Shown here: positions 2,588-32,744 of the stretch, piece by piece
Numbering within the stretch: position 1 is the first letter of the stretch
Layout of the letters: each line of letters starts with the position of its first letter
Assembly (NCBI GenBank): GCA_900617105.1
Contig: UYFQ01000210.1
Span: 1-35,838, forward strand
DNA from: Hydrurus foetidus
Taxonomy: Eukaryota
Direction of reading: 5' to 3'
Length of the DNA stretch: 35,838 bases
Program-made: the position numbers and the translations under genes
The notes under the pieces: model-generated
The model's input: the letters and a program-made list of their open reading frames with translations, nothing else
The model's database searches: none
What the model was told of the DNA's origin: nothing

Positions 2588-2795
2588 TGTGGTCGGGCAA
2601 ATGGAGAAAGGGGGGCGAGAGGAGGTAGGCTTAGTTACAGGAGTCTAGGCTAGAAGCTAGTTAACTTCTAAGTGGACGCTGCAGATGGCTACGACGATAC
2701 TACAGCCTAACTGTAGTGTACAGTAGTAGTACCCGGTAGGATCCGGTAGGATCGGTACCCGGTAGGATCGGGACCCTGGACCCGGTACTATCACA
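2588..2795 (-). repeat. 5' LTR of gypsy family 1, copy A (208 bp, TGTG...CACA)
   Basis: TG...CA ends with 4-bp inverted termini; motif blocks shared with the LTR at 27703-27920; has one extra 16-bp internal repeat versus copy B. Partner LTR not in window. Confidence 0.7.
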
Positions 2796-4764
2796 CTGCA
2801 ATGGAATATATACGAATTGCTAGAGTGTAATTGTTCAGGAGTAGATAACATTTAGGTGCACCTCTTGATTGTTCGCGACCACTTTCTCGAGGACCACTAT
2901 CTTCTCGAGTAGTACCGGTATTAGCGTCTCTCCTGTATTCAGACTTGCCTCCATATTCGACTCATTGAAGCTTTCTTTGACCGCTTTCCCCCACTCCAAT
3001 AGCTCTTTTAAAGAGATGTCACATTCATTTGCCTTGTCCATCAGTATTGTCAGTAGCTCATGCCTCGGGTACTTGCTTCGCATCTCAGGCAGGTACATCA
3101 GGACAGTGGCAAACATGCACAGTGCGAGAGGCCATAACTTGCCATTCGCGTTCATGTCGGGGAATGCGAAGTGGAATAGTTTCACGACAAGATTGCCGAT
3201 TCGGGTCGTATTGCGTGAGTCCAAGAAACAACACTCCGGTTGGTGCACAGTCGAGTGTGAGTCTCTCCAACCAGCTAGCGCTCGACCGGCGCATGATATT
3301 GGGTATTGAATCCCTTCTATATAGATGAATAATCTGCTGATACATTTTGCCTCCTATCCGCCCCGGAGGAGAATGTCGATGAATCTTGTTGTCTTGTGGG
3401 AAGACAAGATACTCGCCGCTCCGACTCTGATACATATAGCTTAGTTTAGTGCTGTGCACACCTTGACATTAATTTGAAACAGTTCAACATATCTCAATGA
3501 AGTCCCCTCGTAGTCTTTACAGCTCTCAGCAATCGATATGTCTGTGCAATCTGCCAAGGCCTCTCTGATATACTTTGTGACAAGTGACGATGCAGAATCC
3601 AGATTCATAGCAAGGTCTGGAAGTATCCAATTAGACGGGGTTCCTTAGCTAAGTTTCAAATTTCTACCACCCATGATCAAATAAGATGCGATTGCGTAAT
3701 GAAAGTCAATCTCCATCGAGGAAACGTCGGAGAAGAAGTTCATGGGGTCCGAGTCCCCTTAGAATTTCGCGGTTAGAACAAGAGCGATCAGTGAATTAGT
3801 GATTTAGGTTAGTTTCTACAAGAGTTCAAGATTTCCGCACACCAGTCTTTTTTTCGTTCAAATTTATCAAAAGGTTCCCAAGTTGCCGATTCCAAATGGT
3901 AGATGTCCAAGTAGACAAAGCCGACTCCCCAGATCTTCCAACCGCGAGAAATGTCATAACTACCGCGAGACGTCGCTTCATTGCCTCTGCAGTACCCGTA
4001 GACATCAACGTTTGGTTGATAGAAAGTAGCAAACTCCGAAGAATAGCTTCAGAGCACTCCGACACAGCAAAACCATTGATCATTTGCCGACGACTGATGT
4101 TAGTCTCGATGGCAAGACGCAGATTAGGATACCACGTATCGAGGGACTTCTCGATCCAAAAAGGGTTTGTCGCGAACTTTTCTGTGCATGCTCCTTTAAT
4201 GCTGATAGACACTGTATCGCTGTCCCAGGCATCAACAATAATTCAGTGCATTTCCTTTTTGCATTCTCTGCCAGGTACGCAGCGAACTCTTTGAAAAATT
4301 CCTGCTTGCAGATTTCACTCTCGGACAGCCTTCCAAGAGAAGTGATTCCTTTAGTATCCAAACCAATCTGTTTGTTGGAGCAGAAAATATCTGCATGCCT
4401 TAATGCAGCAACTCTGCCAGCCTCTGTTGACTTGGACGAACCACATGTAGCCATGGCTTTGTAGATTACAGGAACGATTGCGGCCATCGGCAAGAATAGG
4501 TTCTTTCGCAGTGCTCTTCGTACTGAATTTTTTGCTACAGCGCTGTTGCATGAGCTTCATACTAATCTTAATTGCCGCACTTCGCAGCAGTGCTGAACAT
4601 TGATGACGTGATCGTAAGGCATCGTCAGGAGGGAGATCTTGAAATTTCCCACCATCCCTTTGGGGGACAGTGGGAAGTCATAGGAAATTTATTCAGAAAA
4701 AGAAATGCCGTGACTTTTACGTGAGTTTTTTTGTTTTTTTGTTGCACGCGCGCGGTATACCATA
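2796..4764 (-). mobile_element. Crypton-type tyrosine-recombinase transposon remnant, copy A
   Basis: Contains YR pseudogene; candidate terminus TATGG at 4760-4764 (-); 3' part interrupted by the gypsy LTR. Confidence 0.75.
2862..4487 (-). pseudogene. Crypton-like tyrosine recombinase, intron-containing, disabled (copy A)
   Basis: Reconstructed motifs AVGRSGE, EKKTG, GTSLRVGA, RGG*(W), LFIYI, GRALAGW; one frameshift, two in-frame stops, one apparently mutated splice donor. Confidence 0.8.
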
Positions 4765-4959
4765 GTACGCATGCAATCAACCACCTCTTGAGTTTCCACG
4801 AATCTCTCTCACTTCGTCGTCCGTTAACTAGAACATACCTGTAAACCACAACAGCTCGCTGCTCGGCACGTAGAGGCGCCTTCCGAGAGCTCAGTAACTC
4901 CTATGCAACGTGTCGTAATCTAGCGCACCATAGATTGCAGATCTTTAAAACAGTGAATA

Positions 4960-5246
4960 ATGGTGGCCAGTGGACACCTCAGGACGTCGCCTCTCAGCGA
5001 TGATGACTCAGACTTCTCTGATTTTGAGCCCGATGAAGCAGATTTAGAGAGTGAAACTGTAAATAATAATTGGCTGGACGAGGTGGATGAGGTTGTTGAA
5101 GTGGTGCCATCGTCTCCCTCACCGAAATGCTCTTTTGCTGACATGCTAAAAGGGAAAACGGTCCATCAAAGAGCATACGTCACGAATAACAGTGGACTGT
5201 ATCATGCACTCTGTTCCGTTGAAGACTTAGAGTTCGCTAATTTGGT
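4960..5246 (+). pseudogene. Truncated duplicate of exon 1 of the cNMP-kinase-REC-PP2C gene
   Basis: First ~95 aa identical to the protein starting at 10892, then runs into antisense gypsy and stops at 5265. Confidence 0.85.
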
Positions 5247-7950
5247 GTGCAGCTTGCGGGGCTAGCTTATCACTGAAAATATCAGCAAATTCTGAACAGA
5301 GAGTACGCAAATTCTTCTGAAGGCTTTCATCTCCCTCAAAATGGATTTGTGACAAAAAATCATCCGGCCCATTGGGCGGTACATTTCGGCACGTCTTGTC
5401 ACGCAAGAAAGGTGCGAAGGTGTCAGTCTTGTCATTGTCAATCTCGTCAACGGAGAGTGCGACACCGCTTGGCCATACGGCTTCCACGTCATAGTCTGAT
5501 GTAACAGAGTCCCCAGAGGTATGTGTGAGGGTGGGAATCGAGTCACCACCTAGGTGCGGGGTATCACCCGTACGTTTTGCGAGTCTAGTCGTGACACTAG
5601 CCAGTCGCTCACAACCCACATCACCACATGGACTTTGGGTCATGACTCCCTCGGAACCAACCTGGGTAACGCTACACGTGAACGTTGCATGACAACCTGA
5701 CCCCACGACTTTCCTGGTTAAAGGTGCGTGCAAAATGGCCTTCTTCGGTTTTGGCTTTGGGCAAAGGCCGTATGGTTCTCTTTTCAGAGCGAGTTTCGTC
5801 TGTGTGATTCCCTTCAACAAGTCATATGTTGGGGTAATCGACTCTACCTCTGGTTCTTCGGGTTGGAATCCCTCCGATATCATACGCCTGGTGTATTTGC
5901 TCCAGTGAAGTGGGTCGAGCTTTGTTATTGCTTCCCTTTCTTCAAATTCGCGCCAACGAATATCCCTTTTCCTTTTGTTCTCCGCACTGAGCTCAGGAGA
6001 GATACCAAAAGCAAAAGGTGTTAATGACATAAAATCATATTTATTTACAGTGTTGCGACTTAACAAAAGTTCAATATCTGTATTCCGATTAACTCGCAAG
6101 GTTAAAAGGATTTTGTGACATTCGCCATCATAAGAATGAAACTGGAGAGTCAAAATAATAATTTCGTTATTTATATAGCAATGGCCATCAAGACCAGAGC
6201 AAACAGTTATGGCTTTAGGAGCCTCATAACAGAGATGCATAGCATTTAGTTTTTGAATCATTATAAAAGAAATAAAATCTTCTGAATAATTTGCGGTGTC
6301 CAACACGGTCTTGCCCACAATGCGTCGTACGCTAGTCTGGTTCTTCAAATCCTTATCCTGTACCGAAACAGTAACGTTTAAGTAGTTAGAAGGAAGGGTA
6401 GACGGGTCATGCAAATATTCATCTTGAATAAGCGTTGGAAGTGTATCGACATGTGAAGTGCACGACACAACATCCGGTAGGTGTAAAATGTCAGATGAAT
6501 CAACATCATAATCATTTATACCTTGATTTTGTCCCGCTGAAGAGGAAGACGAGGTGGGGCCCCCCTGGGGTGGGTTGTATTTACCCCCACGGGTTTTTTT
6601 CCCTTGGTAACCTCTACCAGCATTCTGGTTACCATAACCTTGATTTTGGTTACCGCGGTTGTTACCTTGGTTCCCTTGGTTACCCTGGTTATTTCCTTGG
6701 TTACCGCGGTTATTACCTTGGTTGCCTTGGTTGGGGTTGTTTTGGTTACCCGACCCATGGTTATTCTTTGATTTCTTGTTAGTGAACATCAAGAAGGGAG
6801 GGGAACCAGCAGGGTGGTGCCGCTGTCGGTTTTCGTAACCAGGCAGGATTAACCTTTCCTGCCACATGGATTCACCGTTGGCTAACCATGCCTGCCCCAC
6901 AGCTGATTCAGACCATTGAATGGAGTGATCGTTGTTTGTGTCAGTGTAATATAACACAGGGCATGCGGGAAGCATGTGTGCAGGATTGCCACACGAGCGG
7001 CAGACTCGAGGAGCCACTGGGGGTACATCCAATGAGGTACGAACCGCTAGGGTGCTTTTGCCGCTCGGTGGATCCACATCGCGAATCGCGAGTGTACTCT
7101 CCCTCTTCTGTGATGCACGTAGAGGGGGTACTGCGGTACTCGGAAACGAGTAGATGAGATCAGGATTGCCGTAGCTCCTGCTCATTCGAATAGCCTCGCG
7201 CGCCGCGGAGACGACGGAGATGAGGCGCATCATGGCGGACTCCCATGTAGGGGGTGACTGTGTGTCGACCCTCTTAGACTCAAAGTAGTCTGATTGGATA
7301 CGACTGCCACGAGCAAGTCGTTTCTCCAAAATCGATATCAACTCCGACTGTTGATTGGGAGTGATACGGCGGGTGCGCTCGTAATTGGTTACCAATTCTT
7401 TGTACGCCATGTACGTGCTCAACTCTTCCTCATCGGAATTTAGTGAGTAATGAAATGGTACCTTAGCGAAAAGTTCCGCGAGGGTATGGTCGGCATGGTC
7501 TCGTTGTTTATTCGAGCCAAAGTACTGCATGATTAGTTTTGCAACATAATCAATGTCAAGTATATTCTGCCAGTCGAACCTCTGTTCTATTGTCAGAGAC
7601 GAAGGGGCGGCGTCTGTCATAATCTTGACGTGGAGCAAGTCAATCGCTTGACGTTGCATGCATTCATTAATGCGTAAGCGAGGCAGCCGCTGAGCTTGCT
7701 CAAAGAAGCTCTCAGCGTCTTGCGGAGTGATGTAATCGCCTTTGAGGACGAATATCTCTCGCTGCATCTGCATAGTCTGTGGAAACAGAATAGTCTGTGC
7801 CACCGAAGACTGTGAGGTTTGGGTGGCATTTAAAATACCCCCGTCCTCTTCTAGCGTTTCCTCTTCCTCAGTGTCAACAACTGGAGGATGTTCGATGAGG
7901 TTACCCTCATCGTCGTAACGAGGATAAGATGCTTCGTCGTCATCGGCCAT
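5227..7950 (-). CDS. Gag-protease polyprotein (907 aa; last residues read from host sequence across the junction)
   Basis: Acidic N-terminus, CX2CX4HX4C knuckle, N/Q/G-rich repeats, aspartic protease-like LDTA, long spacer up to the RT-proximal region. Confidence 0.88.
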   Translation of the reverse strand: MADDDEASYPRYDDEGNLIEHPPVVDTEEEETLEEDGGILNATQTSQSSVAQTILFPQTMQMQREIFVLKGDYITPQDAESFFEQAQRLPRLRINECMQRQAIDLLHVKIMTDAAPSSLTIEQRFDWQNILDIDYVAKLIMQYFGSNKQRDHADHTLAELFAKVPFHYSLNSDEEELSTYMAYKELVTNYERTRRITPNQQSELISILEKRLARGSRIQSDYFESKRVDTQSPPTWESAMMRLISVVSAAREAIRMSRSYGNPDLIYSFPSTAVPPLRASQKRESTLAIRDVDPPSGKSTLAVRTSLDVPPVAPRVCRSCGNPAHMLPACPVLYYTDTNNDHSIQWSESAVGQAWLANGESMWQERLILPGYENRQRHHPAGSPPFLMFTNKKSKNNHGSGNQNNPNQGNQGNNRGNQGNNQGNQGNQGNNRGNQNQGYGNQNAGRGYQGKKTRGGKYNPPQGGPTSSSSSAGQNQGINDYDVDSSDILHLPDVVSCTSHVDTLPTLIQDEYLHDPSTLPSNYLNVTVSVQDKDLKNQTSVRRIVGKTVLDTANYSEDFISFIMIQKLNAMHLCYEAPKAITVCSGLDGHCYINNEIIILTLQFHSYDGECHKILLTLRVNRNTDIELLLSRNTVNKYDFMSLTPFAFGISPELSAENKRKRDIRWREFEEREAITKLDPLHWSKYTRRMISEGFQPEEPEVESITPTYDLLKGITQTKLALKREPYGLCPKPKPKKAILHAPLTRKVVGSGCHATFTCSVTQVGSEGVMTQSPCGDVGCERLASVTTRLAKRTGDTPHLGGDSIPTLTHTSGDSVTSDYDVEAVWPSGVALSVDEIDNDKTDTFAPFLRDKTCRNVPPNGPDDFLSQIHFEGDESLQKNLRTLCSEFADIFSDKLAPQAAHQISEL

Positions 7951-8716
7951 GGTATATGACTTCGAGACGTTATAATTCCGTCAAAGTCTAAGCAACGAAG
8001 GGATCTCGGCGTCAAAAAATTTTTGCCAGAGCTTCGCCTTGTTAGCTTTGAGGGTACTTTACGCAAGTAACAGCGAATAAGTCGATTTCAACCAACTCTT
8101 GTTGAGAAAATCTCTTAGGCGTGAAAGCCAATTTTTGAGTGGTGAAAATTTTTGGTGTCCGTAAAGGATGAAGGAAGTAATTCCCACCAGCCAAAAGAAG
8201 TCGTTAGACTAATTTGGTGTCGTTAGCAATGAATCCAATGTTCAAATTGCAATTCGACGAGTTTGAGAATGTCGAGTGGTGAAGGCTTTCGCGAATTCAA
8301 CCAACTACGAACTTTGGAGACACCAATAATGGGTTCCAAGAGGAAAGAGGCTAAGCCCAACTTTCGCTAACTTAAACTAAGTTCTTGGAGCGTAGCTCAG
8401 CAAGAATTCGACTCCGCAGATGTCGTGAGTAATAATACTCAGGTGGTGGAAGTCGTAACTAAAGTTGGGACGAGTAGAGGGGAATTAGAGGCAGCAGAAA
8501 ATTTCCCGAGGATAATAGCGCTATTGTGGTCGGGCAAATGGAGAAAGGGGGGCGAGAGGAGGTAGGCTTAGTTACAGGAGTCTAGGCTAGAAGCTAGTTA
8601 ACTTCTAAGTGGACGCTGCAGATGGCTACGACGATACTACAGCCTAACTGTAGTGTACAGTAGTAGTACCCGGTAGGATCCGGTAGGATCGGGACCCTGG
8701 ACCCGGTACTATCACA
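5247..8716 (-). mobile_element. Ty3/gypsy LTR retrotransposon family 1, copy B, truncated just before RT
   Basis: LTR + leader + gag-protease ORF; ends at CSEFADIFSDKLAPQAA, homologous to CLEFRDLFSNKIATLPA that precedes RT in the second element. Confidence 0.92.
8525..8716 (-). repeat. 5' LTR of gypsy family 1, copy B (192 bp, TGTG...CACA)
   Basis: As copy A; immediately followed by palindrome AATAGCGCTATT (8514-8525). Confidence 0.7.
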
Positions 8717-10696
8717 CTGCAATGGAATATATACGAATTGCTAGAGTGTAATTGTTCAGGAGTAGATAACATTTAGGTGCACCTCTTGATTGTTCGCGAC
8801 CACTTTCTCGAGGACCACTATCTTCTCGAGTAGTACCGGTATTAGCGTCTCTCCTGTATTCAGACTTGCCTCCATATTCGACTCATTGAAGCTTTCTTTG
8901 GCCGCTTTCCCCCACTCCAATAGCTCTTTTAAAGAGATGTCGCATTCATTTGCCTTGTCCATCAGTATTGTCAGTAGCTCATGCCTCGGGTACTTGCTTC
9001 GCATCTCAGGCAGGTACATCAGGACAGTGGCAAACATGCACAGTGCGAGAGGCCATAACTTGCCATTCGCGTTCATGTCGGGGAATGCGAAGTGGAATAG
9101 TTTCACGACAAGATTGCCGATTCGGGTCGTATTGCGTGAGTCCAAGAAACAACACTCCGGTTGGTGCACAGTCGAGTGTGAGTCTCTCCAACCAGCTAGC
9201 GCTCGACCGGCGCATGATATTAGGTATTGAATCCCTTCTATATAGATGAATAATCTGCTGATACATTTTGCCTCCTATCCGCCCCGGAGGAGAATGTCGA
9301 TGAATCTTGTTGTCTTGTGGGAAGACAAGATACTCGCCGCTCCGACTCTGATACATATAGCTTAGTTTAGTGCTGTGCACACCTTGACATTAATTTGAAA
9401 CAGTTCAACATATCTCAATGAAGTCCCCTCGTAGTCTTTACAGCTCTCAGCAATCGATATGTCTGTGCAATCTGCCAAGGCCTCTCTGTTATACTTGGTG
9501 ACAAGTGACGATGCAGAATCCAGATTCATAGCAAGGTCTGGAAGTATCCAATTAGACGGGGTTCCTTAGCTAAGTTTCAAATTTCTACCACCCATGATCA
9601 AATAAGATGCGATTGCGTAATGAAAGTCAATCTCCATCGAGGAAACGTCGGAGAAGAAGTTAATGGGGTCCGAGTCCCCCTTAGAATTTCGCGGTTAGAA
9701 CAAGAGCGATCAGTGAATTAGTGATTTAGGTTAGTTTCTACAAGAGTTCAAGATTTCCGCACACCAGTCTTTTTTTCGTTCAAATTTATCAAAAGGTTCC
9801 CAAGTTGCCGATTCCAAATGGTAGATGTCCAAGTAGACAAAGCCGACTCCCCAGATCTTCCAACCGCGAGAAATGTCATAACTACCGCGAGACGTCGCTT
9901 CATTGCCTCTGCAGTACCCGTAGACATCAACGTTTGGTTGATAGAAAGTAGCAAACTCCGAAGAATAGCTTCAGAGCACTCCGACACAGCAAAACCATTG
10001 ATCATTTGCCGACGACTGATGTTAGTCTCGATGGCAAGACGCAGATTAGGATACCACGTATCGAGGGACTTCTCGATCCAAAAAGGGTTTGTCGCGAACT
10101 TTTCTGTGCATGCTCCTTTAATGCTGATAGACACTGTATCGCTGTCCCAGGCATCAACAATAATTCAGTGCATTTCCTTTTTGCATTCTCTGCCAGGTAC
10201 GCAGCGAACTCTTTGAAAAATTCCTGCTTGCAGATTTCACTCTCGGACAGCCTTCCAAGAGAAGTGATTCCTTTAGTATCCAAACCAATCTGTTTGTTGG
10301 AGCAGAAAATATCTGCATGCCTTAATGCAGCAACTCTGCCAGCCTCTGTTGACTTGGACGAACCACATGTAGCCATGGCTTTGTAGATTACAGGAACGAT
10401 TGCGGCCATCGGCAAGAATAGGTTCTTTCGCAGTGCTCTTCGTACTGAATTTTTTGCTACAGCGCTGTTGCATGAGCTTCATACTAATCTTAATTGCCGC
10501 ACTTCGCAGCAGTGCTGAACATTGATGACGTGATCGTAAGGCATCGTCAGGAGGGAGATCTTGAAATTTCCCACCATCCCTTTGGGGGACAGTGGGACTC
10601 GGACACCAGTCATAGGAATTTTATTCAGAAAAAGAAATGTCGTGACTTTTACGTGAGTTTTTTTGTTTTTTTGTTGCACGCGCGCGGTTTACCATA
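8717..10696 (-). mobile_element. Crypton-type transposon remnant, copy B
   Basis: Near-identical to 2796-4764; candidate TATGG terminus at 10692-10696. Confidence 0.75.
8783..10409 (-). pseudogene. Crypton-like tyrosine recombinase, disabled (copy B)
   Basis: Same motifs and same disabling lesions as copy A (e.g. TAG in place of the RGGW Trp at 9275-9277). Confidence 0.8.
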
Positions 10697-10891
10697 GTAC
10701 GCATGCAATCAACCACCTCTTGAGTTTCCATGAATCTCTCTCACTTCGTCGTCCGTTAACTAGAACATACCTGTAAACCACAACAGCTCGCTGCTCGGCA
10801 CGTAGAGGCGCCTTCCGAGAGCTCAGTAACTCCTATGCAACGTGTCGTAATCTAGCGCACCATAGATTGCAGATCTTTAAAACAGTGAATA

Positions 10892-13800
10892 ATGGTGGCC
10901 AGTGGACACCTCAGGACGTCGCCTCTCAGCGATGATGACTCAGACTTCTCTGATTTTGAGCCCGATGAAGCAGATTTAGAAAGTGAAACTGTAAATAATA
11001 ATTGGCTGGATGAGGTGGATGAGGTTGTTGAAGTGGTGCCATCGTCTCCCTCACCGAAATGCTCTTTTGCTGACATGCTAAAAGGGAAAACGGTCCATCA
11101 GAGAGCATACGTCACAAATAACAGTGGACTGTATCATGCACTCTGCTCCGTTGAAGACTTAGAGTTCGCTAATTTGGTTCCAGCAATTCAGATTGTGTTG
11201 ATGAAGAGCCTTCTCGTGCAGAGATTCCAGCCGGGTAAGATAGACGTTACCTTGTGATAAGAATTTACAGGCTAGTCTCCCTGCAAGTATCTTCTCTACA
11301 GAGGAGATAGATTGGAACTCGCTTGTAAGAGGAGAATCTTTGCTCTGGCGACTTTTGACCATTTCGTGAATTTTGTTCTGCCGATTTCGCAGGAGAGAAA
11401 ATCTTCAGCGAGGGCGACTTCTCTTTCCCATTCTACATCATCGTCGCATCGGACGAAACAGCTGACACTGCTTGCGTTGAAGTGCTTAAAGATGCCGGTG
11501 GCTCAGAGAGGCTCATGACGAGACTTCATCGAGGTGCGAATGATACTACGTTACTTTTGCTGACACTTCTTTGGGAAGTGACTTAACAGTGCGATGATTT
11601 CAACAACAGGCCAGTACTTCGGACAAAAATATTTCCTAACGAAACAGCGAAGAGTGAGAAGTGCTACTGTGCGCGTGCCTTTCGACTCAGTGAGCGTGGA
11701 TATTGCATGTCTAATGCCCGAACAATTCTCCATCTGGGACTCGTATCGGAACGTTCTGCTAGGTGAGAATGTTCAACATCATATAAGCTGCGCACTGAAC
11801 ACTTGCTGGGAGCTACCCCTACACCTCTACTCAGTAACGAGAATTTAAGAATACTTCTGCCAGTGTAATTCATACTGCAGTATGAATGTCATGCTGCTGC
11901 GAGCTGAGTGGTACTGGTACCAGCTGAACTTTCACAGTTCTCTTTCTTTTTTTCTTTCTTCCTTTCTTTTATCTCGTTCGGTACTACCTCATTTCCGTTT
12001 CTATGTTTCTTTACAGTGCAAGGTGTGCCACTCATTCAGAGCGTGCCACGTGGTGAACGAGTGGCAATGATTTCCCAAGCTCAGATAAGAGAGTTCAGGG
12101 AAGGAGAGTACATTATAAAGCAGGGAGAAGTTGGAGAGGAACTTTTCATCATTCTGGAAGGAGCGTGTGACGTAGTTGAAGATAAAAACATCACGAAATC
12201 TTCTTCAAAAGACGACAAGGACAAATTGTCTATAAAAGATAAGGAAAAAGAGAAGGATAAGGATGGGAAGGAGATTGAAAAAGTTCCTAACATAGTCAAA
12301 TTAGTGACTTTGAGGGAAGGACATTTCTTTGGAGAGATGTCTCTAATGTCGGTCAGTACAACTCGTCTATCAGCCTGCCTGTCAAATAGCGTGGAACTGA
12401 ATCTGTCGGTTCAATGAACACCATGGATGAAATATATAGATGTGCGCTGCGCCAGATATCTTTTAAACACTTTTACATGCATTATCACTGCATTCCTCCG
12501 CATTTATGTCAATGATGCTCTCCACCATATCCTCACAGAACAATCCTCGCATGGCCAGTGTAGTGGCCAATTGTCCCAGCATCTGTCTGAGCCTCACAAA
12601 AACAGTGTTCAGGAATGCCCTATCAGCAGAAAGCTTCGCAAAGGTGTTGTCCACTGTGCTGGATGAGAGAAAGAAGGCGAGGAAAAGAAGACAGTCAGCT
12701 TCGAGGCAAAAGATGCTCCAAGCTGCTCTAGGTATTTGAAGCCCATGAATCGATTTACTCTTTGCTTTCGTGCGTGTTGTAATACCGTTTATTGTATACG
12801 ATTCATGTATCAATTTTCATCGAAATGTCTTCTGTTGCTTCTGGCTATATTCTAATTCTGAATCTATCTGATTTGTTCTACCGCATGGCATGTTCCATGC
12901 ACGTAGAGAAGTCGAGATTGATCTCTGATTAACAATATCCCAATTATAATCAATCAATCCATCAATATTATGATAACAACCTGAAGGTGCTGGTAAGAAG
13001 TTGAGTGCGTCTGAGAGGAGGCAGTCCTCTCCCCTGAGAAGGAGCAGATCGGAGACGCCCAGCATAGCCCTGGCGGAGTCACCAGTCACGGGTGCTGCTA
13101 CGTCAGTCACGCTGACGTCATCTGTGAAAATGAGAAAACTGTCCTCAGGTATGTCAATGGGATGGGACAAACTGAAAGTGAAACTGAAAGCGATAAAATG
13201 AACCAAAATGAGATAAATATAATGAAATGAATGCAAAGGAATAAAACGGGATTAGTAAACATTTGAAGAAGCGGTATCTCAATGCTGTAGGTGACAAACT
13301 GGTGAACAAGTACCTAGTAGTCAAGGAGCTGGGTAAGGGTGCAACAGGAGAGGTGTACATGGTGAGGGACGAAGAAACGGGACAGCCCTATGCCATGAAG
13401 GTTACCAACCGGTACACAGCGGGTTGGAGTGACGAGAACTCGGGGGACCGGTCCATCGCTCAGGAGATAGCGGTGATGAAGAAGCTACAACATCAAAACA
13501 TCGTCAATCTAGTTGAGGTACCGAGTGAATATAGCATGGATTCAAATTGCTTTCATGGCTGAAATTTTAGTCTCTTCTGGCATTTGCAATTACCGACAAA
13601 CATACACACTAATACTCACAGTCACAGTATAACTAACACACACGCCCTCACTCTCTTCACATCCTATCACTCTCACCCCCGCTCACTCACTCTCACCCAC
13701 ACAGGTGATAGACGATCCCAAGAATCGCAAGATCTTCCTAGTGCAGGAACTCATGGAGGGAGGGGCCCTCATGCCGGACTCGGAAAATTGCGAACCAGTG

Positions 13801-16800
13801 GCAAACGAAGTGGGTTCTGCATTGACTCTTCCTCTCCTCTCGACATCTGTTTGTGAGCAAATGTGTGCCATGCATTAGAGCCCTTCAGGATGTCGATGCA
13901 TTCCAATGCTGCATATACAACAAGATAAGCGACTAATGCCATTCTTATGCGCGACATATGTAGGTTGCTTGGATGTATTTCCGCGACATCGTAGCTGGAC
14001 TGGCCTACCTCCACTCCGAAGGCGTCATCCACCGAGACATCAAGCCACAGAATATTCTCTTAACGGCTGACGGCATCGCCAAGATCGCCGATTTCGGAGC
14101 AGCTGTCTTCATGGACGACGGAGAAGGCAAAGTAGCCTACGCAGGCACACCAGGTATGTTGGTGCCGTTTGTGTACATGTGTGTACGTAGCCCCACTTCC
14201 CTCATCTTCCTTTCTCTCCTCATCATTTCCATCTGGTCAAGTCATCCCATCCCATCCCAATCATCATCCCTCATCCAATCTCATCTCATTTTATGTCCGC
14301 ATTCCACTTCAGCCTTCATGTCACCGGAATTGTTCATGAGCAGTGAAGCCGCCATAGAGTTCTCTAAATCCCCCGCAATCGACATATTTGCACTGGGCGC
14401 TACTCTCTACTGCATGGTAGTGGGACATCCTCCCTGGATGGCTAACAACCAAATCGACCTGGCTAACCAGATCATCAGCATGGATCTGGTGTTCCCTGAG
14501 GGGATCATCCTCGACCCACATCTAAAGGTGATACTGCACGGCATGTCTTCTCTGCTTATCTGCATGTTGCTTTCTTACTTGGAATTGTTATCTTCTGCTT
14601 CTTCTCTAGACGCATACGTACTTCCTCAGTGAGTCCAACAACAGTGCAAATTATTCTGTAAATCATTTACTACCCGCATACATCTCCCCCATCATCTTCC
14701 TAACTGCTACTTGGTGTGTCGCCGTCCATGTCTGTTTACCCCACACAAGCATCTTACATTTCCCCATCTATCTACAACCTTTACTCTGCCTCTTCTCTAC
14801 TCCTCTTACTCCCATTACTCCTCATCGCCCCCACTCAGCATCTATTGAGGCGTATGTTGGACAAGGACCACAAGAGCCGGATAGATTTGGACGGAATCGT
14901 GGAGGACGACTGGGTGACGCACGAGGGGGTCGACCCGTTCTTCTTTGACGGTAACGCAACAGTGATGTACTTGTTCCTCGTGTGCGAGGAAGGAGAACGC
15001 AGGGACGGTGGGAGGGGAGGGGAGAGGAGGGGAGAAAGTATATTAAATCAAGTTGCAGTGGAATGATTGTTGCTCCAGACCCTATCCTATTGAGGATTTT
15101 GTTTGCATCTGTCATACCCATCAGGAAATCTTCTACTGTCACCAACTCCTTTATTAGTCCTCTACCGCTTTGTATTACTTCTCTCTCACCTTCATCTCAT
15201 TTTTATTCTCCTCCTCGCACACATCACTTCGCTTCACATCATAGGTGGCCCTGGCACGCCCCCCACCCTGTTCGATTCGGACCAAGACCTGGAGGCCCCC
15301 ATCATGCCGGCCAGCCCCACGCAATCCCTGCTCCGACTGGCCGTAGACGTGTCCGAGTCCTTAATGTCCATATCCCCCAGGGGAGGAACTTCTCCCGCAC
15401 ATGCAAGGGTGAGGGCGACCCAGTTGTCTTACTGCTCTCTGTACTGGATTGCACTACACCACATTACTCTACACTACCCTACTCTACTCCACTCTCTTTT
15501 TCTTTTCTTTTCTTCCTTAACTCAGCAATGCCTCACTGCAATCTGCTCTTTGCTACCGTCAATTCTTTCAATTATTTATTTCCTTTGCTTCTGCCTTCTT
15601 AAGATTTTCTGAATGTGATGTGGTCGTGATTACTTATTTAGCTTCGCGTTCATTCTGCTCCTAAGAGATGAACAAGCATGTGATGACCTTCCTTGCACAT
15701 CCCAACAATCTTGTTATCGGTTCTATCTACAGCAAACCATGATGGCACATTTTCCGAAGCCGAAAGGAGACGGCACGGTATTGGTGGTCGATGATAGGTA
15801 GGACAAGATGAGAGAGCGGACTGCTCAATGGATCACATCGAAGTAGTTTATCACCAACATTCAATAACAGTTTCACTTGCATTCTTTTCCTGTTTCATTC
15901 AGTCCTGTTGCAAGAAAGCTGTTGGCCATTCAAGTGGAGCGGGTGACGGGCTACACGTGTCAGGCAGCGGCCAGCGGCATCGAGGCGGTGAACATTCTGT
16001 CGGAGCTGATGAAGAACGGGGGCACCTCTTTTGACGCCATCCTCATCGACCACGCCATGACGCACTCCAGTTCACTCAAGGAGGTGAGCACAGGACAGCG
16101 ATATTTATCTAATGTTTCTCATATTGAAGGAGTCAGTCGGGCCATGAATACGCTGTGTGTTTTCTACTCTACTCTATTCTATTCTATTCTATTCTTGCTT
16201 GCTATTTGTTGGCCATATGATTCCATCCCCTCAATCGCCCCTCTCCATCACCCCTTTTCCCTTCTCTCCACTTCACTTCCCTTCTCTCTACTTTTAACAG
16301 GGCAGAGAGCGGGTGAGTCTAGACGGTCCCGCCACTGCCCTGGCCATCAGACAATGCGGATACACAGGTCGCATCATCGGTATGTGCGGCTCAACAGGAG
16401 GAGTCTTGGGGGAGTCCAGAACAGATTTCATGGTGCGTCACTCTCTGTTACTAGTCTAGTCTTCATTTGACTTAGCATCTAATATCGTGAATTGTATGCA
16501 ACAGTTTGCATCACGTATCAAGTTACATGATACCACAAGAACGAAATTTCTGTATCTGCTCTACATTTCTCTCCATTTCACTTATTCTCATTCTCATTCT
16601 TTGCATGGATTGCATTTATATATAGGATCGTGGGGGAGTGGTTATTATTTTGAAGAAGCCGCTTGACTGCCACCAGCTCAAGGAAGCTATCATGGACACG
16701 GCGGAAGAGTCCGTCATATCACAGAGATTCATGCAGAAAAGGTGAGCGCTGCACTCTTCTGACCATACAAGACTTCAGAGTGAGAGATGTGCAGCTATAT

Positions 16801-19800
16801 CGTATTTTGATTTTATCTCACGTTGTCGTGATCACGTACAAAACCATATACTACTTCATGGAGCAGACCATCTAAGAATTGTAAACCATCGACCATAATC
16901 GAATAGACGTAGATATGATGACAGATCAGAAACACACTCTAACTCAACACTCCACTACCTCAGAGACCTGCTGCAGATAGAGGACATCAGCACGGCCATC
17001 AAGCGACTCAGTCTGCAAGCCATCACCCCCGGCACCGACTCCTCCCGCAACTCCCCCCTAAACTCCGACAGGAGTACGGGGGAGCTGAGAGGCATCCAGT
17101 TCGAACTCGAGAAGCTGGCTGCCTTGCCGAGCCCCAAGACTACCTCTCAGGTGGGATGGGATGGGATCGAGTGCTATACTATACCACACATACTGCACTA
17201 TTCTGGACATCTGGTGTTAGTCCTGTGCAACGACTCAGCGCGCTCCACACAGTGTTTTTCATCTGCCCCTCACCTTATTTTTTATTCATACCTCTTCTCG
17301 TCTTTCATGCCCCAGTACTCCCAGTCATCTTCACCCACCTTCTTTTTTCCTGTTTGCCTCACTGACTCCTATCCTATTCCTTTGTACCTGTATCCTTCAA
17401 GATCCCATTCGGATCGCCCATAGCGCACAAGCTGTCTGACTCTGAGTCCGCTCAGTCCCTGTACAGCACCGCCTCTATGAGAGCTACTGAGGGACAGGGT
17501 CAGATCAAGGGCAGCAGCTGCAAGAGCAGCAACAACAAAAAGAAAACCCCGAGTACCACCAGCATGTACAGCTTCGCTGACGAAGGTATGTTTGTTTGTT
17601 TGTTTGTTAGATAGGTAGATAGATTGTTTGTTTGTTTGTTAGTGTCATACAATGCAAGTGCATGTGCATTCTAGATAAGAGCACGTGTTTGTTACCTGCA
17701 ATATCCTAATCCCCTCTTCCTTCTTCTCTTCTCTTTTCTCAGCTCTGGCTGACAAGGATTCAAGCGATGAGAATCTTTCTCTCGCTATGGCAGCAGGACA
17801 CATCTTGGAGCTGTCCAAGAAAACCCACAGGGAGTCATCTGCTGAGTCCCTCTCCCTCACCAGTCTAGAGGGCAGGAGGTCTTCGAAGGCAAAGGCAGAA
17901 TCCAACCGGTACATACGGCTACTTTCCTTTTCTTTCCATGCTATTCATGTGCATGCGTCAGCTGTTGCAACTCTGCTTCCGCCAACTCCTAAATTTGATT
18001 CACCTCTTCCTAGAGTTTTTCATAGCATCAAAATCAGTATCGGATTTTTCAAAATTGTAATTTCAAAATTAGACGTCAATTACTATTTTTTCACACCTCT
18101 TCCAAGATTATCAGAATTTTAATTGCGCGCTTTTACAATGATACACCTTGATGATGATGTCACTGTATTGAATTTGATAAATCCTTTAAATTGCACTACA
18201 CTGCTCTACGTACTAGGGTCGTACTATTTGTACGGCAGCGCACTTTACTTCACTGCGTCGCACTGCGTTACAAGAATACCATACCAGCATCCTTCTCGAG
18301 ACCACCAGGCGTCTCTTCTTTCTCTCACATGATCTTCATTTTATTTCACTATTTCATGTCTTCTCATTCTATTTCTTCTGTAGAGGTGTGCCGCTCAGCA
18401 CCAGCACGAAGGATGGCAACACCAGTTACAACAGCAACAACAACACCAACATGAATAAGGCCAGCACAGTCACAGTGAGTAGACCTTCCCCCGTCACTAG
18501 AGGGCAGTCAATCCACTTCGGTGACATCTCGGTGCGACTCACCCCACACTGCAATCTGCCCTTTGTCCCTTTCGTCTCTTGATTGAAGAGGCGCTTTACG
18601 CATGACTCTACTCTTCGATTGCTAGCGTCAACCACACTGTATTTTGTCCTGCCCTGCCCTGCCCTGCCCTACCCTGTATCATCCCTCCCATCAGCGCATT
18701 CTTTGCACCTCCAATCCATATTTCTCATTCTTTAACATTTAATGTTTAATCTTTTATCTGTACTGCAGCTTGATCAGGAGAAAAGTCGTTCGAACCCTTT
18801 CCGCAACGATTTCCAGTACACTGTAAACTATGAATCTGGCAATTATGCTCTCATAAAGAACGCTGACCGCTTAGGAAAGCCGACCACTGAACTGTCACTC
18901 ACGAGTCCTTACTCGTCATTCAACGGTAAGATGAGATAAACTAATCTAATACATGTCTCTGATGCATTCTAGACCACTTCACAAAGAGACAAATCATGAT
19001 GCGAAGATATGATGAGATGAGATGAGATGAGATGAGATGAGACGAGCAAGATGTCATGTGTTGCTGTACAGATAGATTATCAGTCTACTAATATAGCGAT
19101 GCTGATTATCTTTGACAAATTGTGACTCAATTATCTCACACCATGTAGACCGGAAGTATTTCGATGGCATGCTTGAGGAGGAGAGGGGAGGGGCAGGAGG
19201 AGGCAGGGAGTGGGGCAGCAGCATGCCCTCTGAGTCCAGGAGGGGCAGCTACACGTCAGCCAATAACAGCTCGCACAGCAGCATCGACAGCACGGGGCTC
19301 AGTCAGAGCACAGTGAGCAACTCCAGGAGTGTCAATGACAGCAATGGAGATTCCAGCAACCTGCTAGGCAGCACCCTCTTCCTAGAAGGCATGCCTGTGC
19401 CCGCTGCTGGGAGGATGCGGTCCACTAAGGGCAGCAACAGCAGTCTGTTCACACCTCCATTGCAGGAGAGAACACTCACACGCACACAGGACTTCATGGT
19501 CGTTCCATCCGAAGTAGTGTACGGCCCTGGGGGGGAGAAAATCAACAAGGGCATTGCCTACACTGCTCTAGACGGTCGGATGAGCTCTTCCTTTAAGATC
19601 CCGACTAACTCTTCCTATCAAGAGGAGGTCGAAGCGAGGAGGCAGAAGAGGGAAAGGGCGATGATCAAGAGTAAGTTGATGAGGCCTGACAGCGATGAGA
19701 GGGATCCAAGCAGTATGGAGAGGGCGCGTCTCAGTAGAGTGAGGGGCAGCAGGGGCAGTGTGGAGAGATCCAGAGAGGGGTCTCGCAACTCTCCATCCGG

Positions 19801-22800
19801 TAAAACTAACAGTGCGAGTAGCAGTGGTAATGGCAGTGGCAACCCTCTGGCCAAGAAGAAGTCAGGAATGCTAATGTCGAAGGTCGGTGCGAACGACTCA
19901 GCAGCGGGCAGCTTCACTACGACCCTCTCCCCCCAATCATCCGTCAATATTAGCAGCTACAACTTGTCCCGTGTGCCTTCAGGGGATGTGACCTCTGTAT
20001 TGAGGCCCAGAGGGGGGTCACTCGGAATGCACTCCCAAGCATCATCTACGAGGAGAAGGGAGTCCATCACATCCCTTGGATCGTTTGACTCGGTATGCAC
20101 TGTGTACATAATATACTATAGTGTGCTATTCAATCTACTTGTGCCTTCATAATTTTATTCTACCTATCTATCCACTTCACTCTCATCCTCTCTCTGCTTT
20201 CCTTTCCTCTCCTCTTCTCTTCTCTTCTCTAATATTTCCATTCATCGCGAGACATATGCTCAGCACTCCAACTTATTCTCACTTGTATTCATCCCATCTT
20301 ATCTTGCAATATATGCACATCAGTTGGGCATACAATTCATACGGGATAGAGAGATAGAGGCAGATTTTGATTCAGACGTGGACGGACAGCGTGTGAACAA
20401 ACTGGATGACTACAGCGCATCCCCAGGCACCAAGCTGAGTAAGAGAGTGGAGGGCTCGTTCCCCTACAAAGTGGGCAGCAGCAACGGCAGCAAAGTGAGT
20501 TCGCCTGGAGGGAGAGTGGTCTCTGCTAATGTGCTCTCTCTCTCTAGCGAGAAGACCTGCCACAGCATGGTCAGCTTGGAGGCTATAGGAGAAGGTGAGC
20601 AATAATGCAATGTAATTTAATGTGACGCAATGCGATGTTATGAAACAGAGCAGATTTAATACAAACGTATTCTACTGACCGTCAAGCACGCTCTGTTGCT
20701 GGACTCTATAGTATGCATCCTAGCACTGTCGAGGCTGACTTGACTTGACTTGACTTGACCCATTTTCTACTTCGTTCTCTCCAGCCAATCGATGCAATGC
20801 CAGTGCGAGTATTGATGCTGCGGATCAGTCTACGCGTCATTCCGTGCGCTTCTCCGGCAGCTACAGTCCATCCGTGACGAGCAGCACTATCTTCCGCCCC
20901 CTGTCTGTGGCCTCGTGCGTCAGTGGGATGAGTGACGTGTCCACTAGGCCCCAAGGGACAGGGGCGGGTACCGTCTCTCCCCCCCTCACAGACCTGCCCT
21001 TACCCCTGCCCTTACCTAAACAGAAGCACAGCCTCTACATAAAGAAAACTCTTCTGTTGGGGTCGCGCAGTCTGGACAATTTCGAGGAGGAGGAAGTGGG
21101 TGAGTGGAACACAGAGGACTGTCGAGGAAGCGATATCGGCAATGTGACCACTAGGAGTGAGTACGTTGACAAGTGCTGCGACTCGCCCAAGAGTTATCAA
21201 GACATAGACACCGATCAGTTGTGCGACTTGAAGGGGTTAGGGGGGGTGAGAAGGACGAAGAGCGATGGAGATATCAGAGCGCATGCGGCGCATGACAGCG
21301 ACATGGAGTCGCTTGAAGGTGCAGGATTTGAAAAAGATGGAGGGAGAAGAGGATGTGATGAGGACGATAGTGATGACGACTCTCACGAAGGGTTGGAGGG
21401 GGAGGACGAGGACAGTGGTGGTTTGAGGAGTTCAGCCGAGGACGATGATGACGATGACGATGACGGGTGCGATGGAGACCTGGGGGAGGAGATCGTGCAG
21501 TTGGATGATGACCTGTTGGCAAGTGCCCTGGAGGACCTGTGCGTGCAGCGTCCCCGAGGGGACCCCTCTGACTCCCAGTGGAACACGGTCAACGGCTCCA
21601 TAGAGGTCAGCAGCTACCTACTCTGTCCAGCGGGACAGGAGAACTTGAAGTTGGGTATCCGGTTCAGCAAAGCAGAAGCCATCGGAGGCAGGCAGTACAT
21701 GGAGGACAGGATATACGCAGCTGCGAATTTATCTATTGATGAGGAGAATGAGAATGCGGATCTTGCTTATTTCGGAGTGTTTGACGGGCATAACGGAGAG
21801 TACGTGGCTGACTTGCTGCAGAAGAGAATGCACGTAGCGCTGCAGTCGCACATCAACGCGGTCAGCGTCACGAAGGCATCGTTGGAAGGGGGCTGCGCTG
21901 TGTCACCGACAACTGCTAGTTGCCGGGGAGAAGGAGACTTGTCGGCACGCACGGAGAACAGTGAGATGACGGACATAGGGGACTCTGAGAGGGAGCACGG
22001 CAAAGCGCATGCGGACAGCGGCACACTGGGTGACTGCTTCGTGCGAGCTGCGGCTGAGCTGGACCTGCAGATCTTGACGAGGGACTACCAGAGGCAGCAG
22101 TGCAGTCTGCATACAGGCACACTGGATGCACAGACATTCGCAGGCTGCGTGCTAGCGACCATGACGGTCACCTCCGCACCCGCCTTCAACTCCTACAAAC
22201 CCCTCTCCGCTACTCCCAATGGAGCAGTGGCAGAGATGTCGTGGGTCAAGAAAGACAAGCCTCCCCGGTGGATAAGGACGGGCAAGGAGATGACCAGTGC
22301 GGGGTGCGGAGTGAACGTGATGGTGGGACACACGGGTGACTGCCGCGCTGTGCTGTCCATGAAGGGGGGCGTCGCGAGGGTGCTCACAGCAGACCACAAG
22401 CCCCAACTGCCATCAGAGAAGGAGAGAATCGAAGTGGCTGGTGGATGGGTGCACAACAACCGAGTGAACGGAGTGCTAGCTGTCTCGAGGTCCTTCGGTG
22501 ACATCCAGTACAAGACCTTTGACGGATCCACTAGATTCCTAACAGCCGAAGAGGAGGGGGGCATTTGGAGCAAGACTCAGCAGGTCATATCGAAGCCAGA
22601 TATCCTCGAGTTCTCTCTCGATGTCTGTCACGAATTCGTAGTCATCGCATCGGACGGCCTGTGGGACGTGTTCACAGCCCAGGAGTGCATTAACTTTGTC
22701 CGATGGCAGTTGAAGAAGCAGGAGGGGGACCTCACCAAGACGTCAGAGGCGCTGCTGAGTGCTGCCTTCGTGCGCGGCACATCCGACAACACCAGCGCCA

Positions 22801-22913
22801 TCATAGTGGCTTTTAATCAGAAAGAGTGCGCGGAGGAGAGGAGAGATCTCGCCACGTCTGTCTGTCCCATCGTCCCTCCTAACGCTAAACTCGCGAGGCA
22901 GACTAGGCCTTGA
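10892..22913 (+). CDS. Multidomain signalling protein: 2x cNMP-binding, CaMKK-like kinase, receiver (REC) domain, PP2C phosphatase (24 exons, ~2339 aa)
   Basis: Hand-spliced exons, all GT-AG and phase-compatible: 10892-11234, 11393-11533, 11610-11762, 12017-12351, 12539-12731, 12987-13148, 13291-13517, 13705-13809, 13964-14153, 14313-14527, 14839-14950, 15245-15408, 15733-15797, 15903-16083, 16301-16432, 16626-16741, 16964-17150, 17402-17585, 17743-17908, 18384-18531, 18769-18925, 19149-20092, 20324-20594, 20785-22913; total 7020 nt. Confidence 0.88.
11170..12660 (+). other. Tandem cyclic-nucleotide-binding domains (exons 1-5)
   Basis: [27 protein letters not shown] and [38 protein letters not shown]. 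Confidence 0.9.
13291..14950 (+). other. Ser/Thr protein kinase domain, CaMKK-like (exons 7-11)
   Basis: [59 protein letters not shown]. Confidence 0.95.
15775..16700 (+). other. Response-regulator receiver domain (exons 13-16)
   Basis: [48 protein letters not shown]. Confidence 0.88.
19013..19041 (+). repeat. (GAGAT)n intronic microsatellite
   Basis: Direct reading; other short intronic repeats near 17590-17640 (GTTT), 18647-18669 (CCCTG), 20736-20758 (GACTT). Confidence 0.85.
21655..22818 (+). other. PP2C/PPM phosphatase domain (within last exon)
   Basis: [52 protein letters not shown]. Confidence 0.95.
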
Positions 22914-23810
22914 AGGGAAAGAAAGAAAGAAAGGAAGAAAAGGCAGTGCAGTACTCTGATTAGGTAGTACGTGCTGTGATTGTAATTTGAGATCAGACGG
23001 AAAGTAAAATACCAGCATTGCTGAGTACAATACATGGTGCTGTAAATTCAAATTTGAATAGGAGATATGGCACTTATCAATTGTGCGGCTGACCCTCACC
23101 TCACCTCACTCCGCCTCACCTCACGAATAATAATTGATGTGGAGGACAGGACAGGAAAGGAGGAGAGGAGAGGAGAGAAGGTGGATTTAGTGTAGCTTTA
23201 GCTACATCTAACACTTTGCACTTCGCATTCTATTTTATTTATCTCATTCTCATATGGAATCATTTTATTGAACCTGATGAAAAAGGTGTGGGAAACAGTT
23301 CTTTTTAGTGCATTTTATTGATATCTTATATGTTACGAAGCCTTGCCACAAAGCAGTGGCTTTGAAGTCCAACTTGAAGTTCATCTTCAAGTTGTGCGAG
23401 GAAAATCATCTGTCAGTAACTTTCACAAAACTTATAGTTTCTATGTTGATGTTAGTTAAATGATTTGATTTGTCCATTGGAGTTGCTGATCTTAAGATAA
23501 CAAATTGATAATATTAAATTGATCTTGAGATTATCCGGCCTCATCGGTGGGTTCTTCAGGTCGGTAAGCCGTGCCGCATGTAATATCATGCAATGTTATC
23601 GGAAATTCTATGGCGAATACGGTTGAAATCACAAAAGGTGGTTTTTAATATCATTCACCTTACTGTCGAAAGCGAGCATCAGCGCCACGGTGCGCTATAT
23701 CTGAGAACACGCGGTCTGTTCGTAGGATGCTTCTCATAGCCATTCCTCGATATCGGCGTGATTTTGGTAAAAGAGATCATTCATCTCGTCTCCAATCTTG
23801 ATCGTTGCTA

Positions 23811-24186: not shown

Positions 24187-24638
24187 TATAACCATTTTAC
24201 TAAGATTCATAGGAATGAAGTTCGACCCCCCCCCTAAATATTTCTACACACTACTAGATATATTAGATTTTGATTCCGATGAATCTATGAACACCATACA
24301 CCATACATAGGAAAAAATGCTGAGGGTCTACCGCATACAGCATACACAGCATACAGCATATCCACAGCATAAAGATATCATAGCCACCAGCCACCGGAGG
24401 GATGGTGTACAAATAATTAAAAAGTTTGTACGCCAAATTTTGAAATGTTCAAAATTGGTTGCGCACGCGCGCTTCGAGAGCCCCTACCGCCGGTTCGCGC
24501 GCAACACTTCTTTGTTGTGCTGAAGTTTTCGAGTGTCGCCGACGATAAACGACAGCGATAACAAAGTAGTCTTCCTCATGAACTGAGACTGTCACTTTCT
24601 GAACGTTTGCCTTGTTATCTCTGTGGCAACAGATTGCG

Positions 24639-25403
24639 ATGGGTATTGAGGTAATCGGTGCATCTTATGGCAGGACGGGAACATCGTCATTCCAGGCAGC
24701 GATGGAAATCCTAGGATTCGGGAGATGTTATCACATGAAGGAGGTATTTGCGAATAGTTCCGGAGCTCAGTGGACAAAAATTGCCGATGAAAGAAATCCT
24801 ACCCTTGTTCGAGATCTAATGGAACAAGGAAACTATCGCTCTACATGTGATATGCCTTCAAGTGTTTACTGGCTCGAGCAACTACAAATTTATCCAGATG
24901 CAAAAGTCGTCCTCACATTGAGGGATCCTGAGAGATGGTACAAAAGCTGGATGGACACGATTGGAACCGTACATCCCGACTCTGAGTCGTGCTACTTCGG
25001 TAACAGAGTAATCATGGGTATGGGTCTTTTTCAACACTTCAGTATGACTCCCATGTTCAATAAAGTAATAACGCGTGACTGTTTCAATGGAGACTGGAGC
25101 AAACAAAATTTAATTGCCTGCTACAAAGCGCACATTGAGAACGTTAAGAAACTGTGTCCTCCGGATAAACTCCTTCTGTTTGACGTCAAGGACGGCTGGG
25201 AACCTCTCTGCACATTTCTGGGAGTCCCTGTACCTGATTTGCCCTACCCTCATGCAAATGACACTCCAGCATTCTTGAAGATGGCGTCTATTCTTCATAT
25301 TGTTGGATGGATAATGTGCATTCTTGGATTAGGGATACCCGCTCTCTACCGCAGTAGGAGCATAATTTCTGATGAAGCGAAAAAGAGCACCAACACGGCA
25401 TGA
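24639..25403 (+). CDS. Sulfotransferase-family (Sulfotransfer_4-like) P-loop protein, 254 aa, probable C-terminal membrane anchor
   Basis: VIGASYGRTGTSS..LGFGRCYHM, YPDAKVVLTLRDPERWYKS, GWEPLCTFLGVPVPDLPYPHAN; hydrophobic tail; first ATG at 24639. Confidence 0.9.
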   Translation: MGIEVIGASYGRTGTSSFQAAMEILGFGRCYHMKEVFANSSGAQWTKIADERNPTLVRDLMEQGNYRSTCDMPSSVYWLEQLQIYPDAKVVLTLRDPERWYKSWMDTIGTVHPDSESCYFGNRVIMGMGLFQHFSMTPMFNKVITRDCFNGDWSKQNLIACYKAHIENVKKLCPPDKLLLFDVKDGWEPLCTFLGVPVPDLPYPHANDTPAFLKMASILHIVGWIMCILGLGIPALYRSRSIISDEAKKSTNTA

Positions 25404-32648: not shown

Positions 32649-32744
32649 TACATACATCTCGAAAATGAACACCGGATTATAAATATTTTTTTTTCAAAAA
32701 TTAATTTTTTTTCGAAGTGATATGCAAAATTGAATTAATTGCAT

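Follow-up and report, generated by a model that had tools for sequence, protein, structure and literature searches.

The window analysed here is a stretch of 35,838 nucleotides (nt) from Hydrurus foetidus (assembly GCA_900617105.1, contig UYFQ01000210.1, positions 1 to 35,838 of the forward strand). It contains one long gene (10892..22913, +), defined by its reading frame, splice sites and RNA joints, whose product combines two cyclic-nucleotide-binding (cNMP) domains, a CaMKK-like Ser/Thr kinase, a receiver (REC) domain, a long linker and a PP2C phosphatase in this order. The core of this layout belongs to an old family of stramenopile proteins; the inserted REC domain is the new part in comparison with the core layout in print.

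The coding sequence runs from an ATG at 10892 to a TGA at 22913. It was rejoined from 24 exons of the forward strand: 10892-11234, 11393-11533, 11610-11762, 12017-12351, 12539-12731 and 12987-13148 (exons 1-6); 13291-13517, 13705-13809, 13964-14153, 14313-14527, 14839-14950 and 15245-15408 (exons 7-12); 15733-15797, 15903-16083, 16301-16432, 16626-16741, 16964-17150 and 17402-17585 (exons 13-18); 17743-17908, 18384-18531, 18769-18925, 19149-20092, 20324-20594 and 20785-22913 (exons 19-24). The 7,020 coding nt contain no internal stop codon and specify 2,339 amino acids (aa). All 23 introns are of the GT..AG type and have lengths of 76-475 nt. An RNA contig of run X2 begins at 10761 and indicates a transcribed 5' leader of at least 131 nt (10761..10891, +). 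The likely 3' untranslated region (22914..23496, +) is covered by a contig of the same run, which extends to 23496. Intron 9 (14154-14312) comprises 159 nt, is in frame and free of stop codons; its retention would add 53 residues at the GTP-AFM motif of the kinase, and gene callers could wrongly keep it.

Parts of the window are represented in six freshwater metatranscriptomes, the best of which has the same species label as two oligo-dT runs. Four metatranscriptomes and the two oligo-dT runs were mapped to the gene. The contigs derive from close relatives, most pieces being 90-99% alike, and those from metatranscriptomes carry no information on strand, start or level. Among the RNA joints listed, at least 19 of the 23 introns are found at the modelled places. 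Introns 12 and 18 are represented by loose ends that match the neighbouring exon, and introns 9 and 10 are covered by a 3,638-nt contig of run X2, which spans window positions 10761-18519 and agrees with exons 1-20 at the level of single bases. Base 3335 of this contig corresponds to position 17741, in agreement with 131 leader bases plus the 3,205 nt of exons 1-18 as modelled. The cNMP domains, the kinase and REC are therefore located on one assembled transcript. Considering joints, loose ends and the X2 contig together, all 23 introns are backed by RNA. The junctions 14950/15245, 16741/16964 and 20594/20785, for which the initial annotation had proposed an RNA check, all occur in the joint tables. 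From exon 20 to the PP2C domain, coverage comes from contigs that belong to different runs and overlap in series, and none of the contigs extends over the entire gene. From the oligo-dT runs X11 and X12, of which about 6% each was used, 72 and 67 reads were mapped; these reads, with four joints seen in 1-4 reads each, and add weak support. The depth of the contigs climbs toward the 3' end; this rise is not evidence for a transcript containing only the PP2C part, because contig depth cannot rank the parts of a gene.

Furthermore, relatives encode the same arrangement in one open reading frame (ORF): protein P0001 has 2,392 aa and is marked complete, and P0081 has 2,429 aa on a contig of 7,566 nt. 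The initial annotation had described one gene whose 24 exons join in frame, with GT-AG sites and without stops, into a polypeptide of about 2339 aa. The rebuilt model, the RNA across the introns and the full-length single-ORF relatives confirm that this is a real spliced gene encoding one polypeptide. A merger of two or more adjacent genes, through an assembly error or an exon model that was forced, was rejected as extremely improbable: a near-identical tandem copy of 5.9 kilobases just upstream means that the local assembly is not simple, and all exons never occur on one RNA contig, but RNA stands behind all 23 introns and the single-ORF relatives possess all domains in the same order.

Domains of the encoded protein

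The kinase domain (aa 449-716; 13308..14922, +) was located by Pfam Pkinase matches on exons 7 and 9-10 and by motif alignment. It contains K479, E501, HRD at 576-578 and DFG at 596. For P0001, the four best matches among solved structures are CaMKK2 and CaMKK1 (E values 6e-54 to 2e-48), which rank ahead of PKG although the PKG score takes in the cNMP domains. These matches of the relative assign the domain to the CaMKK group, as the initial annotation had supposed; an identity as PKG (AGC group) was rejected, since CaMKK ranks above PKG. The activation segment does not contain a single Ser or Thr between DFG and GTP. As the kinase thus lacks a phosphorylatable residue at this site, its control is likely to be allosteric.

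The PP2C/PPM phosphatase (aa 1921-2310; 21654..22823, +) is encoded by exon 24 (PF00481, E 5.2e-49). It has two insertions, and its metal-binding motifs are intact: RxxMEDR at 1933, DGHNG at 1964, GDCR at 2148, DGLWD at 2254 and DN at 2298. The elements RxxxxD, DGHxG, DGLWD and DN of the motif list in PMC10925823 are all present. The earlier statement that the catalytic motifs of kinase and PP2C are intact agrees with these positions and with the PF00481 match. Among the coding variants listed (76), the domains contain 21 silent and 3 changing ones, and the linkers contain 34 silent and 19 changing ones.

The second cNMP domain, domain B (approximately aa 214-345; 12019..12601, +; PF00027, E 1.7e-9 on exon 4), possesses a canonical cassette, FGEM...PRMAS, with both the Gly-Glu pair and the Arg. 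Among the rows listed, Gly-Glu is kept in 55 of 56. The cassette of domain A (approximately aa 85-200; 11144..11725, +), which was delimited by sequence comparison and by two PF00027 stretches in P0001, is altered: it reads FGQK instead of FGEL, with Gln for Glu and two extra residues, and the Arg is kept. The replaced Glu is the residue that contacts the ribose. The Gln is found in 20 of the 25 readable rows of the branch of the window protein; oomycete rows instead read FGELALIYDDPRTATV. Judged from the sequence, domain A is conserved but reshaped and is likely to be structural or to bind something else, and only domain B qualifies as a clear predicted sensor of cyclic nucleotides. Of the two cNMP sensors initially annotated, both domains are thus present and the second is canonical, but the sensor function of domain A is doubtful in view of the missing Glu. 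A first cNMP domain reshaped in this manner was not found in print.

The REC domain (aa 794-928; 15772..16691, +) is encoded by exons 13-16 and was delimited by family alignment and by a structural model of the matching domain of P0001. Pfam, applied to single exons of the window, matched neither REC nor cNMP domain A, because introns cut both. The Pfam score of the P0001 domain is 21.5 bits, below the cut-off of 30.2 bits. The model of this domain shows a (beta-alpha)5 arrangement (predicted local distance difference test, pLDDT, 78.6; predicted template modelling score, pTM, 0.77), and its top Foldseek rows are receivers. The best match in a wide comparison is the receiver of yeast Sln1 (Z 15.2, root-mean-square deviation 2.5, 121 residues), tied with other receivers. 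According to the model, the domain has the CheY-like (beta-alpha)5 fold of REC, which agrees with the embedded REC domain of the initial annotation. The window protein keeps D800, D801, D851 and K917-P918, that is, the acidic pair, the Asp after beta3 and the Lys after beta5 of a phosphorylatable receiver (DD/D/K). D851 (16048-16050) is the predicted phospho-acceptor. The Thr/Ser at the end of beta4 is missing; at this usual switch position, the window protein and its four closest relatives contain a Cys (Cys891).

A profile built from six REC copies was used to search the 63 compared proteins. REC was found in 13 of them (that of the window included), always just after the kinase and in chrysophytes wherever the species is named. 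It is absent from 48, and two diplonemid proteins carry an unrelated-looking REC. Among 16 REC copies, DD/D/K is complete in six (window, P0001, P0099-P0101 and Chromulina P0010), and the remaining ten are degenerate, having lost at least one of these elements; the acceptor Asp is retained in ten copies and lost in six. The REC domains of the four closest relatives (P0001, P0099-P0101) are 61-66% identical to that of the window and keep DD/D/K throughout. A search for a donor among 405 candidates yielded a hybrid histidine kinase as sole, weak match outside the family (33% identity, E 7.6e-4), which is a lead to the origin of REC and not an origin.

The linker that follows (16964..21653, +) comprises about 970 aa, is rich in Ser (17.5%) and, according to its composition and the comparison with P0001, is poorly conserved and predicted to be disordered. 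Its identity to P0001 is mostly 13-45% per 100 aa and reaches 64% at a motif that the family alignment locates, together with a likely beta-hairpin, at aa 1335-1360 (19475..19552, +). In this motif, L-x-R-x-x-D-F-x-x-V, the L and the R are found in all 28 aligned rows, the F in 27 and the D in 21. The pattern, which was built from the same sequences, occurs in 30 of the 63 proteins compared with 0.39 in shuffles, and it is kept in oomycetes (all seven rows of the oomycete branch) and in Cafeteria. The substrate consensus of CaMK/AMPK kinases is L-x-R-x-x-S/T, with a hydrophobic residue at -5, an Arg at -3 and a hydrophobic residue at +4. The linker motif resembles this consensus with an Asp replacing the phospho-Ser/Thr, like a pseudosubstrate. 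The motif was not found in print. In contigs of three runs, a 12-nt in-frame deletion affects a Leu-Pro repeat of the linker (20993-21004).

Relatives and described proteins

When long proteins were searched with the PP2C part, 26 hits were obtained, of which 15 unite kinase, cNMP and PP2C. With the cNMP-kinase part of P0003 as query, the number of hits was 64, and the named rows include Phytophthora, Peronospora and Cafeteria roenbergensis. The named close rows are chrysophytes, namely Chlorochromonas danica, Pedospumella encystans, P. elongata, Epipyxis, Chromulina nebulosa and chrysophyte H1; the host is accordingly likely to be a chrysophyte as well. The nearest relative is P0001, which is 51% identical overall and 88% identical in the best kinase block. 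The window protein has the order cNMP-cNMP-kinase-linker-PP2C of the family in one ORF, and the kinase is followed by PP2C in oomycetes and Cafeteria as well as in chrysophytes. In a quick kinase tree with midpoint root (62 rows; P0071 was left out as partial), the window kinase groups with oomycete proteins inside a branch of 56 rows (Shimodaira-Hasegawa-like approximate likelihood ratio test, SH-aLRT, 97). The comparison thus identifies the core, consisting of two cNMP domains, a CaMKK-like kinase, a long linker and PP2C, as an old stramenopile family that has been catalogued in oomycetes. In the same tree, a branch of 21 rows (SH-aLRT 94) comprises 12 rows with REC and nine without it, which is consistent with one gain of REC followed by decay and loss.

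The papers cited below were available in part, and statements on them refer to these parts. The oomycete proteins PITG_17359 and Ps568223 were linked to rows P0045-P0051 by eye, from printed kinase and cNMP stretches. They share domain order, kinase type and linker motif with the window protein. They differ in that they lack REC, contain two canonical cNMP cassettes (FGEL..PRTA, FGEM..PRTA) as opposed to the altered domain A of the window protein, and comprise about 1,750-1,900 aa compared with 2,339 aa. In Table S1 of PMC3019232, the entry for PITG_17359 reads 'CAMK undefined'; two cNMP domains and PP2C are given for this protein, and its best match is CaMKK2. Its expression in P. infestans is constitutive (PMC5322657). 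Ps568223 is among the five kinase-bearing PPMs of PMC10925823, where its cNMP domains are noted and one mRNA is reported; its expression is high in zoospores and cysts of P. sojae, and the PPM that was tested experimentally is a different one. The initial annotation knew of no described protein with this layout. The core order, however, was already listed for PITG_17359 in 2010 (PMC3019232) and for Ps568223 in 2024 (PMC10925823), and the claim stands for the REC-bearing form, on which no paper was found in the literature searched, which mostly excludes subscription papers. The main text of PMC10072465 does not mention 568223. The UniRef name 'cGMP-dependent protein kinase' on the oomycete rows looks automatic.

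Rice PKG, Arabidopsis PP2C19 and, among oomycetes, PITG_08304 and PITG_09375 also have a PP2C domain, two cNMP domains and a kinase within a single chain. In this group, the order is PP2C-cNMP-cNMP-kinase, the kinase is of the AGC/PKG type and REC is absent. An identity of the window protein with plant PKG/PP2C19 was rejected because of this reversed order, with PP2C at the N-terminus and the kinase at the C-terminus. The kinase of PITG_08304 and PITG_09375 is inactive (PMC3019232). In rice PKG, cGMP is reported to raise the kinase activity and lower the phosphatase activity (PMC11638329, summarising a 2019 study), and this enzyme is the best model for how the window protein may work.

The animal kinases CaMKK1/2 and the plant kinases SnAK/GRIK share the motif GTPAFM[AS]PE with the window kinase. 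In contrast to these kinases, the window protein carries cNMP, REC and PP2C domains and has no activation-segment Thr comparable to T153/T154 of SnAK (PMC4033248). Compared with CaMKK proper, its kinase is followed by a short acidic, Pro-rich linker and then by REC. Two proteins of the diplonemid Namystynia karyoxenos (P0020, P0024) show the order kinase-REC-PP2C of the window protein. However, they lack cNMP domains, their kinase lies outside the cNMP-bearing family in the tree, and, searched with the chrysophyte REC profile, their REC gives no better than E 0.004-0.17; this arrangement is likely an independent fusion. In P. infestans PITG_03934, another stramenopile protein, REC is likewise fused to a Ser/Thr kinase (PMC3019232, Table S1), but the kinase is of the NEK type, REC is N-terminal, and cNMP and PP2C domains are absent. 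A second group of proteins with CaMKK-like kinase and PP2C (P0014, P0070, P0072 and P0074, Ectocarpus among them) is without cNMP domains and has HGD in place of HRD; P. sojae Ps480075 looks like a member of this group.

Possible regulation of kinase and phosphatase

We tentatively favour, at somewhat less than an even chance, a protein in which kinase and phosphatase are combined and in which REC allows a His-Asp phosphorelay, beside cyclic nucleotide, to set the balance of the two enzymes. The kinase would be controlled allosterically: binding of cyclic nucleotide to domain B, the old input, would release it as in PKG-like proteins, and D851, once phosphorylated through a relay from a hybrid histidine kinase, would act as a second, added gate on the adjacent kinase. 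When the signals fall, the tethered PP2C would take off again the phosphate that the kinase has written onto its target. The target would most likely be an AMPK/SNF1- or CaMK-type kinase, at its activation loop, since in animals and plants this site is phosphorylated by CaMKK-group kinases and dephosphorylated by PP2Cs. In AMPK/SnRK1, one activation-loop Thr is the shared site of CaMKK/SnAK kinases and PP2Cs (PMC4033248). The motif L-x-R-x-x-D-F-x-x-V would be a docking site or pseudosubstrate, either for the kinase of the same chain or for the AMPK/CaMK-type target. Among stramenopiles, four groups are reported to have histidine kinases (PMC6324907). According to the same paper, eukaryotic phosphorelays usually reach Ser/Thr signalling via separate regulators, namely transcription factors, MAPK cascades and cAMP systems; if the proposal holds, a receiver between kinase and phosphatase in one chain would constitute a direct link from phosphorelay to Ser/Thr signalling.

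Several points weigh against this proposal. DD/D/K is complete in only 6 of the 16 REC copies, the acceptor Asp is lost in 6 of 16, and the window protein has Cys891. With most REC copies of relatives deprived of phosphorylation residues, the switch with two inputs and opposing outputs that the initial annotation had put forward stays an inference. REC is missing from 48 of the 63 compared proteins, nine of them inside the window's own branch; the enzyme pair therefore does not need it. REC and PP2C lie about 970 linker residues apart. The likeness to a pseudosubstrate is weakened as well, given that the motif pattern was derived from the same sequences. In the available part of the histidine-kinase survey PMC6324907, no chrysophyte is named. 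Finally, the phenotype of Arabidopsis PP2C19 is rescued by the PP2C domain alone (PMC11775391), and fused domains therefore need not be coupled.

It is conceivable, albeit rather unlikely, that REC is a non-phosphorylated structural or partner-binding module and that gating is due to cyclic nucleotide alone. The ten degenerate copies, the Cys that replaces Thr/Ser in the branch of the window protein, the low Pfam score of the P0001 domain and the nine close rows without REC are in accordance with such a pseudo-receiver. However, D-D, D and K-P are retained in all five copies of the window branch as well as in Chromulina P0010, although the surroundings differ by about one third, and this is what selection for phosphorylation would give.

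A doubtful alternative is that kinase and PP2C share location and expression but act on different substrates and do not control each other; the bulk of the function may then rest with one of the two enzymes, perhaps in a shorter isoform as well. The long unconserved linker and the sufficiency of the PP2C domain in Arabidopsis PP2C19 speak for this independence, and a PP2C-only isoform is possible, since no contig spans the gene and contigs lack starts. It is harder to reconcile with the kinase-then-PP2C order common to oomycetes, Cafeteria and chrysophytes and with the retention of the mid-linker motif in 30 of 63 rows.

An extension of the phosphorelay proposal to the whole family is decidedly unlikely to hold in all its parts. 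In chrysophytes, a working receiver taken from a hybrid histidine kinase would have been built into an old kinase-phosphatase that was gated by cNMP. The resulting chain, with phosphorelay and cyclic-nucleotide inputs, would write and erase an activation-loop phosphate of the AMPK/CaMK type and be held by a phosphomimetic docking motif; REC would later have decayed in sister lineages, and a diplonemid would have arrived at kinase-REC-PP2C independently.

The family offers a natural series in which REC is intact (window branch, Chromulina), decayed (Chlorochromonas, Pedospumella) or absent (oomycetes, Cafeteria), and the gene points to an undescribed linker motif and a reshaped cNMP domain.

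Surroundings of the gene

Positions 2-5253 and 5935-11184 of the window form a tandem copy that is 97.7% identical and has a period of about 5.93 kilobases. The copy takes in the upstream region of the gene and, from 4960 on, the initial 97 codons of exon 1, after which the coding part breaks off. A recent segmental duplication may account for this copy, or else a second haplotype that was assembled in tandem. On the reverse strand, an open frame of 917 codons (5227-7980, -), for which Pfam gave no hit, contains a zinc-knuckle-like CRSCGNPAHMLPAC motif and Asn/Gln/Gly repeats, and a broken copy of it lies at about 195-2044 (-). Judged by these features, the frame resembles the gag-protease region of a retrotransposon.

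Downstream, an intronless sulfotransferase gene is located at 24603-25403 (+; Pfam Sulfotransfer_4, E 1.8e-60). Three consecutive open frames at 29727-32176 (+) likely represent a DNA transposon; the last of them gives a weak match to DDE_3 (E 2.3e-6), just under the cut-off. A further open frame at 32734-33900 (+), again without a Pfam hit, resembles by eye the end of the frame at 5227-7980 and is likely a second retroelement remnant.

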